Of a DNA stretch of 64,000 nucleotides, positions 50,561 through 55,226 are shown piece by piece. Position 1 is the first letter of the stretch, and each line of letters opens with the position of its first letter. The notes below the pieces were generated by a model. It had not been told where the DNA came from and searched no databases. It was given only the letters and a program-made list of their open reading frames with translations. Made by a program: the position numbers and the translations under genes. Location of the stretch: positions 81,139 through 145,138 of the forward strand of contig CALVUF010000004.1 of NCBI GenBank assembly GCA_944363525.1, written 5' to 3'. Source of the DNA: an uncultured Bacilli bacterium. Lineage in GTDB: Bacteria > Bacillota_I > Bacilli_A > RFN20 > CAG-826.

Positions 50561-50911
50561 ATGGATGAAACAATCAACTTAGATCTCAGCCATCTATCCA
50601 ATCGCGACAAATCCTTGCTGGTCGGGGCGATGTACCGCCAATCGCTCGTCCAAGTCGGCAAGAGTCCCGATTACCATCTGGTTAATTTGACCGATGATTT
50701 CCTGACCCGTCTTAGCTCGGCCGCCGGGGCGTTCCTTCGCAAAGTCAAGGCATTCTTCTTTAGCCTCGATCCCTTAGAGGGGGAGATTTTCGTCAACGAG
50801 TGCCTTGAACATGGCCGTCATTACCGGTTCTGGTACTTGTCTTATTATCGTGACGCCGATTATAAGAAGGACCTGCTCGGCATCTATTCTCGGGTCGCGA
50901 CCGCGTTCTGA
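50561..50911 (+). CDS. hypothetical protein (first gene of Tad/Com-like locus)
   Basis: ATG with AGGAGGTAAAACCG SD. 116 aa. The track ORF from 50381 is an extension overlapping the convergent kinase gene. Confidence 0.45.
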   Translation: MDETINLDLSHLSNRDKSLLVGAMYRQSLVQVGKSPDYHLVNLTDDFLTRLSSAAGAFLRKVKAFFFSLDPLEGEIFVNECLEHGRHYRFWYLSYYRDADYKKDLLGIYSRVATAF

Positions 50912-50921
50912 TTAGAAGCTT

Positions 50922-51947
50922 ATGATCAAGCATCTGCTCCTTGGGGCCACCCTTTTCGGCCTGCCCGGTGTTTTGCCCGTGGTCGTCCCGACCACCAATA
51001 TATTTAACATCGTCACCTCGATGATCGTCGAAGGGCAGGACATCGTCGTCAATTGGAACTTCGACACCGGCGATGGCCGTAACAACTTCTATTTGAAGCG
51101 GTGGATTTATAACCCCCAGACTAAAGCCATCGTCTTCCAAGAGGAGGATTATCATTCCTATTCGAGTTCCGCCGGCATCGTCTCTGGTTCTTTCGCCATC
51201 CCGGCCTCGGTCACCTACTTGAGCCGATTCGAGCTCGACATCCGGGCTTATGGGACGCGATCGGGAATCCATGTCGGCGGCGGTTCCTTCTCCAACTTCA
51301 TCGCCAAAACCGTTTCCCCTTCCCCGCCATATGAGGACAAGCTGCTGACCCTGAATAAGGAAGTTGATGGGAAAAGGGAAATGTACGTGAATGATCAATC
51401 CTATGGCGTCTCTTTCCTGCTCGAAGGGCTGGGGCGGTCGGTCCAACGCCGCGAATGCGGGCTCTCCCGTTTCCAGTTCTACTATTATTACCCGGAAGAT
51501 TATCTAACTGCTCCTTCGACCGTCGAGGGGATGCTCTCCATCAAGAACATCGCGGTCGGGCAAATCCATATCGGGCGTTGGCGGCCGCGCCGTTTGCTCC
51601 CTGACCGAACCTATGACCCGGCAAAGCAACTGATCACGATTTACGCCACTAAGGTCAGCGACTCCGGAGGCCGGGCTAAATACACCTTTGCCGCCCGCGA
51701 GCATTATCTTGTTGATCAGCGGACTTTCCATAGCCGGGAGTACGAAGATGGTTTTGAAGATACCGAGTTCTATACTAACGATATCTATATTCCCCTAGGG
51801 GTAGGGGAGGGGCGCGAGGGCCTTTCCTTTGAAGTCGAATTCGGTCCTTTTGGGGAGCATGGCGATTCGTTCTTGTTTAAGTGGACCGAGGCGACCTTCG
51901 TAAGCTTAGCCGACGCCGGTTTCTCGGTGGTGCTGGGAGGGAAATGA
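50922..51947 (+). CDS. hypothetical secreted protein
   Basis: N-terminal hydrophobic signal-like MIKHLLLGATLFGLPGVLPVVVP. 341 aa. Confidence 0.5.
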   Translation: MIKHLLLGATLFGLPGVLPVVVPTTNIFNIVTSMIVEGQDIVVNWNFDTGDGRNNFYLKRWIYNPQTKAIVFQEEDYHSYSSSAGIVSGSFAIPASVTYLSRFELDIRAYGTRSGIHVGGGSFSNFIAKTVSPSPPYEDKLLTLNKEVDGKREMYVNDQSYGVSFLLEGLGRSVQRRECGLSRFQFYYYYPEDYLTAPSTVEGMLSIKNIAVGQIHIGRWRPRRLLPDRTYDPAKQLITIYATKVSDSGGRAKYTFAAREHYLVDQRTFHSREYEDGFEDTEFYTNDIYIPLGVGEGREGLSFEVEFGPFGEHGDSFLFKWTEATFVSLADAGFSVVLGGK

Positions 51948-52331
51948 ATGCTTAACTTCCTGCTTGGCATCACTTTGACGATCGGTTCCCTTCTGCTCTT
52001 CCGGACGACCTATTTCTACACCAACCTTAACCGGGTATTCTTAGGGCTATACAACACCGTCGGCTTAGCCAACGTCGTGGCCTTCGATACCCGGGGCGTC
52101 TTACTCGACTATCCCTATTTCTATGCCAAAGGGGTGCGGGATGACGTCGAATACTATTTGACGGAATCGCTTTCCAACCCGAGCGCGGTCAGCTATTCCG
52201 TGAATTTCTCCTCCTCCCGGGGATCAGCTTATTTGTCATATCCGGACGAAGTGCAGATCCGCCTCTACTCGACTTCGACTTTGCTGCCGGAGTTCGACAA
52301 GACCGCCTACCTCGCGATCAGAAAGGATTGA
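51948..52331 (+). CDS. hypothetical N-terminally membrane-anchored protein (pseudopilin-like topology)
   Basis: ATG immediately follows the previous stop. One N-terminal TM helix plus ~100-aa soluble domain. Confidence 0.4.
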   Translation: MLNFLLGITLTIGSLLLFRTTYFYTNLNRVFLGLYNTVGLANVVAFDTRGVLLDYPYFYAKGVRDDVEYYLTESLSNPSAVSYSVNFSSSRGSAYLSYPDEVQIRLYSTSTLLPEFDKTAYLAIRKD

Positions 52332-53284
52332 CCATGGCTGAAGACAACCGTTTGAAGGAGTCGCTCGAGACTTCCTTCCTCGCCCCTTTGCTTTCCTTAG
52401 AGGGTATCACCGACATCTCCTATAACGGGGAGGCGATTCACTATAAGACCAATTCCTTGGGCCGAAGGCGTTCCGACATCGAGGTGACCAAGGACCAGAT
52501 CAGCGACTTCCTCCGCCAGATCGCCAACCTGGCCGAGAAGCAGTTCTCTTATTTGGATCCGGTCCTCGACGTCAACTTCGATATATACCGTCTTTCAGCC
52601 ACTTTCCATTCCTTAGCCCGGGTGACCGGCAAGAAATCCTATTCCTTTGCTTTGCGGATCGCCTCAAGAGAATGCCTATTGGATAAGGATCCGAGTTTCT
52701 TTTACAAGAATTCCCGCAAAATCCTGCTCGATGCGGTGAAAAAGCGCAAATCCATCGTCATCGGCGGGCCGACGGGGGCGGGGAAGACCGAATTGCAGAA
52801 ATATCTGCTCCAGCAATTAGACGACGCCACCCGGGTCATCGTCATCGATAACGTCTCCGAATTGGAATTGACCCGGGGCAACGCCAATTTCGATTTAACC
52901 ACCTGGCTGACCGATGACCGGGTCGACAAAGCATCTTATGCTTCCTTGATTCGGACCGCCCTCCGTTATGATCCGGATTACCTATTGCTGGCTGAATCGC
53001 GGGGCGAGGAGATGCTCGATGCCCTCAACTGCGCCATGTCCGGCCGTCCGATCATCACCACCATCCATTCCTATGATCTCGAGTCGATGCCGTACCGGAT
53101 GGCCCGGATGGCGATGATGGCCGGGAAGCAATTGGATATGGATGGTCTCTTGCGGGACATCCTCCATCATTTCCAGCTCTTCGTTTACGTCGATAAGATC
53201 GATGATAAGGGGCGGACCAACCGGAAGATCACCTCGATCGGCTATGCCGATGAGGCGGCCAATATGGTCCGCAAGGTGTTCTGA
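52328..53284 (+). CDS. type II/IV secretion-family ATPase (CpaF/TadA/VirB11-like)
   Basis: Walker A GGPTGAGKTE, Asp box RVIVIDNVSE, Walker B/Arg finger RYDPDYLLLAESRGEE, His box TTIHS. TTG start overlaps the upstream stop. Confidence 0.75.
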   Translation: MTMAEDNRLKESLETSFLAPLLSLEGITDISYNGEAIHYKTNSLGRRRSDIEVTKDQISDFLRQIANLAEKQFSYLDPVLDVNFDIYRLSATFHSLARVTGKKSYSFALRIASRECLLDKDPSFFYKNSRKILLDAVKKRKSIVIGGPTGAGKTELQKYLLQQLDDATRVIVIDNVSELELTRGNANFDLTTWLTDDRVDKASYASLIRTALRYDPDYLLLAESRGEEMLDALNCAMSGRPIITTIHSYDLESMPYRMARMAMMAGKQLDMDGLLRDILHHFQLFVYVDKIDDKGRTNRKITSIGYADEAANMVRKVF

Positions 53285-53286
53285 AT

Positions 53287-54012: not shown

Positions 54013-54680
54013 AAAAGAGCTTAAGCAAAAAAATCGAGGCGGCCGGCCTCAATCCGAAGATCGAGCTATTGAAAGTCGGGATCATCTTCCTGCTTTCGGG
54101 CTTATTGACCGCCGGGGCCTATCTGCTTTATGGGTGGAGCTACATCCTCGTCGCCCCGATCGGTTTATTCCTCGTCGGCCTCTACTTCATCTACAGCCGT
54201 TATGACGCCATCTTGAAGGGGAAAAGCGAAGCCAACCAGGAGGAGTTCGTCCGCCTCTTCACTTATTTCTCCGTCTATATCGGCAATAACTACAACGTCT
54301 ATAAAGGGCTCGAATCGATCATCCCCTTTGCCAGTCTGGAGATGGCCGAGAAGCTGAAAAAGCTCTTAAAGGACATCGATGATGATAAGACGGTTCAGCC
54401 ATTCGCCGATTTCGCCGCCAATTTCCCCGACCCGAAGATAAGGGAGGTCATGATCTCCATCTACCAGATGGTCGAGGAAGGCTCCTTATCCCGTTATCTT
54501 GAGCAGTTCCATCGTCTATTTGCCCGGTTAAGCGAGGAGAAGCATGAAGGGGTGGCCAAGAAGCGGCTGGGAAAGTTGGAATCGTTGTCCTTCCTTCCCT
54601 TGGTGGGGGCCGGGATTTCCTTATTGATGCTCGCCCTCGCGGTAGCGGAAGTGCTCGGAGGTATCCTCAGTGGCCTATAA
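54009..54680 (+). CDS. polytopic membrane protein, TadC/GspF-like (T2SSF-type) platform protein candidate
   Basis: Same topology as the preceding gene. GGAGG SD. ATGA overlap. Confidence 0.45.
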   Translation: MKKSLSKKIEAAGLNPKIELLKVGIIFLLSGLLTAGAYLLYGWSYILVAPIGLFLVGLYFIYSRYDAILKGKSEANQEEFVRLFTYFSVYIGNNYNVYKGLESIIPFASLEMAEKLKKLLKDIDDDKTVQPFADFAANFPDPKIREVMISIYQMVEEGSLSRYLEQFHRLFARLSEEKHEGVAKKRLGKLESLSFLPLVGAGISLLMLALAVAEVLGGILSGL

Positions 54681-55008
54681 GTTCTCGATGCTCCTCTCCT
54701 TGGTGTTCTTAGTCTTCGCCTTCATGCTGGCTGGGGATATCACCATCGTCTCCTCGATCCGGTCGGAGCTCGATAACCTGGCCTTGACCGTTTCTTACCG
54801 GTTGGCTCGGGACGGGTATTTATCCGCCGATGCCTTAACTTTGATTGAGGATTTCGGGGCCCGATTAGTCGCCATCGACGATGACCAACCGGCCTTCGGG
54901 CAGACGGTCCGCTTCATCCTGGGTAAGGACTACGATCCGTTATTGATCAGCAAAGACACGGTGACCATCACCGTCAAAGGGGCGGCCATCGTCGGCTATA
55001 TCGTTTAG
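54670..55008 (+). CDS. N-terminally anchored small protein (TadE/pseudopilin-like candidate)
   Basis: MAYKFSMLLSLVFLVFAFMLAG TM segment, then ~85-aa domain. Overlaps the upstream gene by 11 nt. Confidence 0.4.
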   Translation: MAYKFSMLLSLVFLVFAFMLAGDITIVSSIRSELDNLALTVSYRLARDGYLSADALTLIEDFGARLVAIDDDQPAFGQTVRFILGKDYDPLLISKDTVTITVKGAAIVGYIV

Positions 55009-55027
55009 AAGGAAAGGAGGTGAAGAT

Positions 55028-55180
55028 ATGTCGGAATTGAAAGGGCAGTTGCTCGGAATCCTTTTGACCCTGATCGCTTTCGCCAGCATCGGGACCATCA
55101 TGATGAGCGCCATCAAATCGACTTCCACCGCGGTCTCCGAGAAGGTTTCGGAAGAGATGACCCTCGTCGAGAATCTCTAG
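55028..55180 (+). CDS. 50-aa hydrophobic small protein (pilin-like candidate; below ORF-track length cutoff)
   Basis: AAAGGAGGTG SD 8 nt before the ATG. MSELKGQLLGILLTLIAFASIGTIMMSAIKSTSTAVSEKVSEEMTLVENL: short charged leader ending in G, then a 20-aa hydrophobic stretch. Confidence 0.5.
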   Translation: MSELKGQLLGILLTLIAFASIGTIMMSAIKSTSTAVSEKVSEEMTLVENL

Positions 55181-55190
55181 TTGAGGGCGG

Positions 55191-55226
55191 AAAAGGAACG
55201 GGGATTGCCTCGTTCCTTTTCTTTCC
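55191..55226 (+). terminator. rho-independent terminator ending Tad/Com-like locus
   Basis: AAGGAACG-GGGATTGCCT-CGTTCCTT followed by a TTCTTTCC T-rich tract. Confidence 0.65.

Follow-up and report, generated by a model that had tools for sequence, protein, structure and literature searches.

The 64,000-nucleotide stretch of uncultured Bacilli DNA analyzed here (the window) contains an operon of eight plus-strand open reading frames (ORFs; positions 50561-55180), named g1 to g8 in order, which we discuss as a candidate type IV filament locus. As shown in Table 1, the ORFs are co-directional and tightly packed, as a reading of the window from sequence only (the sequence-only reading) had claimed. 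The gene junctions ranged from an 11-nt overlap up to a 19-nt gap (g1/g2, 10 nt; g2/g3, 0; g4/g5, 2; g5/g6, -4; g6/g7, -11; g7/g8, 19 nt). All eight proteins, the 50-amino acid (aa) g8 included, were called genes with exactly these boundaries in public assemblies, in which all of them are unnamed. The perfect Shine-Dalgarno sequence previously placed ahead of g8 was present (AAAGGAGGTG at 55013-55022), whereas the TTG start proposed for g4 gave way to the ATG listed in Table 1, which is more likely and is the start used in public gene calls. The operon is flanked upstream by the guanylate kinase gene (gmk, minus strand) and downstream by the acyl carrier protein (ACP) gene (acpP) and tRNA-Asn/Glu genes. 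An Rfam search of the window returned tRNAs only, with no leader RNA 5' of the operon, and no promoter was found 5' of g1 by a simple sigma-70 consensus scan.

Table 1. Positions of the operon genes and of other features in the window.
Feature	Position	Strand	Description
g1	50561-50911	+	116 aa; small cytoplasmic protein, MG284/MPN403 family
g2	50922-51947	+	341 aa; Sec-exported protein
g3	51948-52331	+	127 aa; N-anchored protein
g4	52334-53284 (TTG alternative 52328)	+	316 aa (318 aa from TTG); T2SSE/VirB11/CpaF-superfamily secretion ATPase
g5	53287-54012	+	241 aa; 2+2 hydrophobic segments; TadB-like platform paralogue (putative)
g6	54009-54680	+	223 aa; 2+1 hydrophobic segments; TadC-like platform protein (putative)
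g7	54670-55008	+	112 aa; N-anchored TadF/DUF4320-like pseudopilin candidate
g8	55028-55180	+	50 aa; Flp-sized hydrophobic protein, N-terminus MSELKGQLLG
Intrinsic terminator, 3' end of operon	55189-55222	+	15-bp stem, 7 GC pairs, then T-rich tail
769-aa protein gene	47527-49836		Polytopic N-terminal membrane domain
ACP gene	55281-55523		Beside operon
Lower-GC segment	56000-62200		Probable accessory or defence island
DNA methylase gene	56000-57022		N4/N6 DNA methylase (PF01555) with in-frame TAG

Relatives of the ATPase g4 came from metagenome-assembled genomes that carry the labels Mollicutes, Bacilli, Erysipelotrichaceae, Candidatus Enteromonas or Alloenteromonas and that, going by these names, probably represent an RF39-like gut lineage of Bacilli. 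The genome had earlier been described as Mollicutes-like; it is better described as an RF39-like member of Bacilli, with a G+C (GC) content of about 52% in the window. When one genome per species was scanned, 202 genomes encoded a g4 relative, and the best 80 loci (45-94% ATPase identity) were fetched with flanks of ±10 kb, giving 1.2 Mb in all together with the window. The same gene order recurred in the 80 loci (about 110, 340, 128, 320, 236, 222, 113, and 50+ aa), the operon lay between gmk (minus strand) and acpP wherever the contig was long enough, and the order g1-g8 was kept at this site even where ATPase identity dropped to 45%. Conservation of the whole g1-g8 order is thus far beyond chance. 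Because the same order and the same gmk/acpP site recur across related genomes, the operon belongs to the vertically inherited core of the RF39-like lineage. It is not accessory, and the earlier suggestion that it belongs with an accessory segment did not hold: the lower-GC segment starts only after the tRNA genes. RF39 bacteria have been described as widespread in human gut metagenomes, with numerous auxotrophies and a strongly reduced genome (PMC6784871). Mollicutes were regarded in an earlier survey as lacking type IV pilus genes (PMC3244431), and we found no description of this type of machine in the literature on RF39 pili or Mollicutes Tad/Flp, in line with the claim that it is undescribed for the lineage.

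The g4 protein scored 69 bits against PF00437 (cut-off 24.9) and contained all three motifs quoted for it, GGPTGAGKT, RYDPDYLLLAESRGEE, and TIHS; the Walker A, acidic-box, and His-box residues were invariant across nine g4 relatives. These results bear out the assignment of g4 to the T2SSE/CpaF/VirB11 family: g4 is a T2SSE-family ATPase, the putative motor of the system. The NCBIfam scores all stayed below their cut-offs, so that no equivalog was reached: VirB11 (TIGR02788) gave 106 bits (cut-off 250), the TadA family (TIGR03819) 99, TrbB 73 (cut-off 305), ComGA (NF041000) 57.7 (cut-off 300), FlaI 51, PilT 37, and GspE 27-28 (cut-off 630). Among PDB sequences, Brucella VirB11 scored 57.6 bits, Archaeoglobus fulgidus GspE2 54.9, HP0525 50, and CpaF 35.6.

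Hydropathy analysis revealed 2+2 hydrophobic segments in g5 and 2+1 in g6, constant throughout both families; the 2+2 TadB/TadC topology that had been claimed for both membrane proteins was therefore confirmed for g5 and not for g6. Similarity of g6 to the T2SSF domain (PF00482) reached 18.2 bits (E = 0.0024; cut-off 25.2), and the PF00482 matches among relatives (6/25 for g6, 1/25 for g5) were all below cut-off. Profile-profile comparison with hhalign related g5 to g6 with a probability of 86.7 (E = 4e-6) and g6 to a canonical TadB/TadC alignment with a probability of 66 (E = 5.5e-5), the value for g5 being only 19. The g6 profile also matched, in a small database, the Clostridioides difficile 'secretion protein F'. 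In the AlphaFold2 model of g6, for which 20 sequences were used and which had a mean predicted local distance difference test score (pLDDT) of 77, the T2SSF cytoplasmic-domain fold was present. Searches of PDB sequences with the g5 and g6 profiles found nothing relevant. Against 1.84 billion representatives, the g6 profile retrieved 406 proteins at E<=1e-3, nearly all of about 222 aa, and the 150 matches listed were all close relatives. Since the PF00482 similarity of both proteins is sub-threshold, the platform assignment rests on structure and profile-profile comparison, and the T2SSF membership proposed earlier stands for the fold and profile of g6 and for the direct sequence matches of neither protein. 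We conclude from the predicted structure and the profile comparison that g6 is a platform protein with a T2SSF fold. Its neighbor g5 is a paralogue of g6 and, indirectly through this paralogy, a putative TadB-like partner, so that the adjacent pair forms two separate single-domain platform proteins, the feature required of a Tad system.

The predicted g6 fold also resembled SpoIIIAB, which brings up a divergent SpoIIIA-like sporulation channel built from a SpoIIIAA-type ATPase and SpoIIIAB-type GspF-fold proteins. This explanation is very improbable: the 25 best NCBIfam matches of g4 (all E <= 0.014) did not include the SpoIIIAA family, counterparts of SpoIIIAE to SpoIIIAH were not present in the operon, and g5 and g6, with 3-4 hydrophobic segments and 220-240 aa, are unlike SpoIIIAB, which has about 170 aa and two transmembrane segments. 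In addition, the homologous module described below sits in plasmid conjugation operons.

The operon had also been called Com-like. The competence pseudopilus (ComGA-GG with ComC) is likewise encoded by a monoderm type IV filament operon in which the ATPase and platform genes come first and small pilins follow. A short retractile fibre of this kind, capturing environmental DNA as a nucleotide or gene source, might suit a genome-reduced organism as auxotrophic as RF39 (PMC6784871), and a conserved core locus is what a housekeeping uptake function would show. However, the ATPase is far from ComGA at the score given above, two single-domain platform proteins take the place of the double-domain ComGB, and the candidate pilins lack the Com-type Glu at +5. 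ComEA and ComEC were not present in the 64-kb window and none was noticed in the flanks, and the nearest relatives of the operon are Tad-like or lie in conjugation operons, not in competence operons. We therefore consider a competence function unlikely, and the Com-like label was not upheld.

Downstream of the platform genes, g7 encodes an N-terminal anchor followed by a conserved globular part, with D23, G77, and G109 invariant. Five of 25 g7 members matched Pfam TadF (PF16964; best E = 2.5e-4), and the g7 profile also matched the DUF4320 protein of the canonical Tad locus of C. difficile pHSJD-312, which comprises a Flp-like protein, an A24 peptidase, RcpC/CpaB, ParA/TadZ, an ATPase, TadB, 'secretion protein F', and DUF4320. 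Through the DUF4320 gene of this locus, DUF4320-type proteins, and with them g7, are linked to Tad systems. Judging from these matches, g7 is probably related to the DUF4320/TadF-type N-anchored proteins placed after TadC in Firmicute Tad loci. The g3 protein has a single hydrophobic segment starting at residue 1, and its position and size are conserved. No family match was found for it, and hhalign showed no relation to g7 or to the gene-36/DUF5411 proteins of the plasmids described below; by position only, g3 is a candidate minor pilin.

The g8 protein has a single hydrophobic helix and a near-invariant N-terminus, MSE(I/L)KGQLLG, across the family. K5 was invariant and E3, G6, L8, and L9 were conserved in at least 90% of members; residue 4 was Ile or Leu, residue 7 was mostly Gln, and the C-terminal half was variable. 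The putative processing site (KG/Q, the slash marking the cleavage point) has Lys at -2 and Gly at -1, with no Glu at +5 and no Tyr at +6, and the sequence-only reading was right both about the KG/Q N-terminus without Glu at +5 and in describing N-anchored pseudopilin-like proteins together with a small Flp-sized protein. The ORF was present in most of the 80 loci, and the exact g8 sequence occurred on 90 public contigs. Two species carried tandem, diverged g8 duplicates (locus L013, 12699-13091, and locus L019, 12783-13144), in which both copies kept MSEIKG, and one of the L019 copies had Ala in place of the Gln after Gly. A search with the g8 family yielded only a faint match to the archaeal Pilin_N family (E = 0.068), and among 27 g8 members neither a match to the Flp family (PF04964) nor the G/XXXXEY motif was found. 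We regard g8 as the candidate major filament subunit.

Compared with the Tad/Flp systems (Caulobacter Cpa, Aggregatibacter Tad, and C. difficile pHSJD-312), the RF39 operon shares a CpaF/TadA-superfamily ATPase followed by two single-domain platform proteins of putative T2SSF type, and then candidate N-anchored pseudopilins (TadE/F or DUF4320) and a candidate pilin of about 45-50 aa in its mature size. In contrast to Tad, Pfam and NCBIfam detected no TadZ/CpaE and no RcpC/CpaB in the RF39 operon, both of which are present in the C. difficile Tad locus; TadZ and CpaB were likewise absent from the rest of the window and from the ±10-kb flanks of the 80 loci. The RF39 operon also differs in having no TadV (A24) peptidase and no secretin, in the lack of the G/XXXXEY Flp motif in g8, and in an ATPase that was nearer to VirB11 than to CpaF in the PDB sequence search.

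The absence of a peptidase and a secretin nearby, as noted in the earlier reading, was confirmed for the window and the flanks of the 80 loci. When polytopic ORFs in the window and in the 80 loci (±10 kb) were scanned, the A24 peptidase motif G-x-G-D-x-K was not found, and Pfam gave no match for three small polytopic ORFs of the window. MSH loci also carry no peptidase of their own and presumably use a borrowed one (PMC6668835), so that the RF39 locus is not unprecedented in this respect. Two explanations of the g8 N-terminus, which the present data cannot separate, may be considered. In the first, g8 would be cleaved after Gly6 (MSEIKG/Q) by an unlinked class III peptidase, and the new Gln at +1 could cyclise, removing the need for Glu at +5; this pyroglutamate idea comes from the Methanococcus maripaludis pilin. 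The leader MKAQKG of Pseudomonas aeruginosa PilA has the same length as MSEIKG. In the second, g8 would not be cleaved at all, the pilins being made 'leaderless' with Glu3 in the role of Glu5, and the absence of a peptidase from the module would thereby be explained. The whole g8 decapeptide, Glu3 included, is conserved far more than leaders usually are. Archaeal type IV pili (Epd/Aap-type, [KR]G/Q cleavage) resemble the RF39 system in having a short N-terminal stretch (leader-like in g8) that ends in Lys-Gly and is followed by Gln, no Glu at +5, and a minimal set of ATPase, platform, and pilins, and A. fulgidus GspE2 was among the best PDB matches of g4. In contrast to them, the RF39 operon has no FlaK/PibD/EppA-type peptidase nearby, and its platform is split in two as in Tad.

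The closest plasmid relatives of g4 were identified by tblastn against PLSDB. The best matches were pLS20-family Bacillus plasmids (30% identity, E = 1e-30), followed by Listeria, Enterococcus faecium, pXO2, and pXO1, with rhizobial CpaF and proteobacterial VirB11/TrbB lower. A common module was recognized on pLS20 (9446-13334), pXO2, Listeria pLM6179, and a 63-kb E. faecium plasmid. In order, it encodes a protein of about 125 aa with an N-terminal anchor, then the ATPase, a pair of membrane proteins (250-270 aa), a second N-anchored protein (about 120 aa, DUF4320), and finally a hydrophobic protein of about 48 aa, of which the E. faecium and pXO2 plasmids have two copies. The protein of about 125 aa matched DUF5411 weakly in pLS20 and the E. 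faecium plasmid, the two that were scanned. In pLS20, E. faecium, and pXO2 the module adjoins conjugation genes. Near it lie a large adhesin gene (pLS20 and E. faecium), a TrbC/VirB2-like gene (E. faecium and pXO2), and a VirD4 gene (pLS20 and E. faecium); in the Listeria stretch shown, annotations of an adhesin, TrbC/VirB2-like protein, or VirD4 were not present. Genes for CPBP/CAAX-type intramembrane proteases were observed near the module in E. faecium (L082, 1-48) and on the Listeria plasmid (L083, 11799-12449); these may have nothing to do with the module or may be candidates for enzymes that process the small membrane proteins. In pLS20, gene 37 is listed as a 'putative VirB11' and the label 'unknown' is given to genes 36 and 38-41, and Gram-positive type IV secretion systems (T4SSs) are normally without VirB11 and pilus genes (Val-Calvo et al., PMC8557374).

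Using hmmsearch against databases of only 19-75 plasmid sequences, the best match of each profile was its positional counterpart, as found for g4 (gene 37, E = 9e-59), g5 (gene 38), g6 (gene 39), and g7 (gene 40). Comparison with hhalign related g5 to the gene-38-like plasmid proteins (probability 77, E = 2e-5, 204 columns), g6 to gene 39 (probability 94), and g7 to the plasmid DUF4320-type proteins including gene 40 (probability 92, E = 5e-7). For the outer genes no significant counterpart was detected, the hhalign probability of g3 with gene 36 being 0.9 and the E-value of g8 with the plasmid small-protein profile 0.01-0.4. These profile matches indicate that g4-g7 are collinear and homologous with genes 37-40 of pLS20-type conjugation operons. 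By the same comparisons, pLS20 genes 36-41 appear to form a Tad-like module that is also present on pXO2 and on the Listeria and E. faecium plasmids. Position 1 of the g7 profile aligned with residue +1 after the '...NEKG/AIDES' leader of the C. difficile DUF4320 protein, and the plasmid proteins of about 48 aa, which begin MLDQNxDR... or MQENNVSR..., aligned from residue 2 with the stretch located behind 'NNESG/' in the C. difficile Flp-like protein (MDENVSK...). Because of both register alignments, which point towards the leaderless reading, the plasmid pilin-like proteins look like ready-made mature pilins.

A neighbor-joining tree of 23 ATPases (302 columns, 500 bootstraps) placed the RF39 ATPases in one monophyletic group (100%) and the four plasmid ATPases in another (100%). 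The two clades were sisters (98%), the RF39 clade not being nested inside the plasmid clade, and both stood apart from CpaF (CpaF pair, 99%) and from the proteobacterial VirB11/TrbB. Both this topology and the sub-cut-off NCBIfam scores indicate that g4 is no VirB11/TrbB equivalog. Taken together, the closest kin of the RF39 operon is the uncharacterized pLS20-type module, with which it shares collinear gene order, a sister ATPase clade, and the lack of an A24 peptidase next door. In contrast to the plasmid module, the RF39 operon is a core part of the chromosome with a constant site between gmk and acpP, and no adhesin gene lies close by; the ATPase that it encodes is shorter by about 100 aa, g1 and g2 are without plasmid counterparts, and g8 has the KG/Q motif whereas the plasmid small proteins begin MLDQNxDR.

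The same data bear on a conjugation-derived translocation module, domesticated from a pLS20-type T4SS and moving DNA or protein without a filament. The best plasmid matches of g4 are conjugation-operon ATPases, VirB11 was the top match in both NCBIfam and the PDB, and genes 38, 39, and 40 have their counterparts in g5, g6, and g7; even so, we judge such a module to be unlikely. In the sequence-only reading, clustering with conjugative VirB11/TrbB, accompanied elsewhere by VirB4/VirD4, would have marked a conjugation remnant. The sister clade is indeed the 'VirB11-like' ATPase of Gram-positive conjugative plasmids, but VirB4/VirD4 were not found near the RF39 locus. By tblastn with pLS20 proteins, no VirD4, VirB4, VirB6, VirB8, relaxase, or TrbC was detected at E<=1e-3 in the window and 80 loci (1.2 Mb). 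The RF39 operon therefore does not look like a decaying conjugation remnant, because the plasmid ATPases carry the same TadB/C-like and DUF4320 partners and because the surroundings of the RF39 locus contain no gene for VirB4, VirD4, or a relaxase.

The first two genes of the operon are those without plasmid counterparts. The g1 protein, which has no hydrophobic segment and is kept as the first gene of the operon, belongs to a family in which 17/25 relatives matched NCBIfam NF045770 (MPN403_MG284_C; best E = 2.7e-19, window copy E = 0.003) and 6/25 matched the ArpU family of phage transcription regulators. From these matches we infer a putative sigma-region-4/ArpU-like regulator. A correspondence of g1 to pLS20 gene 28, the first gene of the conjugation operon, was considered and rejected, as hhalign showed no relation. 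As a separate observation, g1 as a member of the MG284/MPN403 family heads an operon that ends beside acpP, and in Mycoplasma genitalium and Mycoplasma pneumoniae MG284/MPN403 presumably lie upstream of the gene for the acyl carrier protein, at a distance of three genes; the Mycoplasma genes could be a remnant of the locus.

The g2 protein has an N-terminal Sec-type signal segment, with a lipobox in 4/25 relatives. It is predicted to be beta-rich and is fast-evolving (mean column identity 23%), and a C-terminal FGxCxxSxYCV motif was present in most relatives and not in the window copy. No Pfam or NCBIfam match to g2 was found, an alignment-based homologue search gave five proteins, and the AlphaFold2 model had a pLDDT of 34. 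It is a candidate adhesin, cargo, or envelope component. If g2 were cargo, a piston similar to a type II secretion system (T2SS) might be imagined, in which a short g8 pseudopilus pushes secreted g2 through the peptidoglycan. Such a piston would accord with the Sec signal of g2, with the constant presence of its gene in the operon, and with the core common to T2SS and Tad. It is nevertheless quite improbable, as the rapid evolution of g2 fits a surface adhesin or antigen more than a fixed cargo and g4 has no GspE-type ATPase features at the score reported above. Moreover, we know of no role for T2SS-type secretion in monoderms.

On balance, we favor the explanation that the operon specifies a type IV filament machine that is minimal, Tad-derived (type IVc-like), and possibly peptidase-independent, and estimate its probability at roughly 0.55. 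The earlier view of the locus as a type IV filament-like machine is thereby retained, with a T2SSE ATPase at its center. Several points weigh against this explanation. None of the sequence matches to T2SSF, TadF, Pilin_N, or DUF4320 reaches the curated cut-off, and g8, without Glu at +5 and Tyr at +6, matches no pilin family beyond the faint Pilin_N similarity. A search covering the locus and its flanks revealed no A24 peptidase in the window or the 1.2 Mb, and relatives of known function were not detected for g2 and g3. The hmmsearch E-values against plasmid proteins are to be read in light of the small databases used, and the ATPase tree is simple, with few references and no archaeal or ComGA/PilB outgroup. 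Statements on function derive from sequence and one predicted structure.

If the operon does encode a Tad-derived filament machine, a g4 hexamer would dock on a g5/g6 heterodimer in the membrane, and the g4/g5/g6 complex, using ATP, would lift g8 from the bilayer and stack it via the hydrophobic helices into a thin Flp-like fibre. The g7 protein, and perhaps g3, would prime or cap the fibre, whereas Sec-exported g2 would be displayed by the fibre or help it to cross the wall; g1 would regulate transcription of the operon. The fibre would most likely mediate attachment to surfaces or partner cells, a role that would suit an auxotrophic gut organism and would match the place of the plasmid version beside conjugation adhesins. 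A broader proposal, which we offer tentatively and consider doubtful at present, is that an unrecognized branch of type IV filaments, with leaderless pilins and no prepilin peptidase, is common to RF39 chromosomes and to conjugative plasmids of Gram-positive bacteria (pLS20, pXO2, Listeria, and Enterococcus). The plasmid version would then be the long-missing 'mating pilus' of Gram-positive conjugation, and the RF39 version an organelle domesticated into the core and serving contact with the host or with partner cells.

Several features were observed in the neighborhood of the operon. Upstream, the 769-aa protein (Table 1) has an N-terminal polytopic membrane domain, a low-complexity middle part rich in Glu, Lys, Pro, and Ala, and a conserved C-terminal domain; it had no Pfam match, and the order CTP synthase, diacylglycerol kinase, 769-aa gene, gmk is conserved in many relatives. 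Downstream, the ACP gene is kept beside the operon although the lineage has been reported to be without any fatty-acid synthesis (PMC6784871). The segment that starts directly after tRNA-Asn/Glu has a lower GC content (46-48% vs about 53%) and encodes a methylase, an alpha/beta hydrolase, a helix-turn-helix protein, a DUF3990 protein, a WCX-domain protein, and a DUF2828/DUF7788 protein. As it is only patchily common to close relatives, it is probably an integrated accessory or defence island. Its N4/N6 DNA methylase gene is broken by an in-frame TAG at the Asp of the catalytic DPPY motif ('SIDLILT*PPYF'), which may mean that the gene is inactivated, that the stop is a sequencing error, or that the codon is read through.

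We found no description in the literature of the RF39 operon or of the Tad-like nature of pLS20 genes 38-40. For RF39, a putative surface-filament operon at the same site in every related genome examined is a strong candidate for attachment to, or exchange with, partners, and may provide a concrete handle for enrichment or cultivation. For the plasmids, the comparison gives genes 38-40 of pLS20 and their homologues a putative structural identity as platform proteins and pseudopilins. According to the literature, the conjugation systems of Gram-positive bacteria have no pilus (PMC11730352, PMC8470214), a claim that becomes directly testable in a genetically tractable host. If a plasmid mating pilus exists, it could explain the efficient mating of pLS20 in liquid, and if its pilins and those of RF39 are leaderless, this would break the rule by which type IV filaments depend on a class III signal peptidase.

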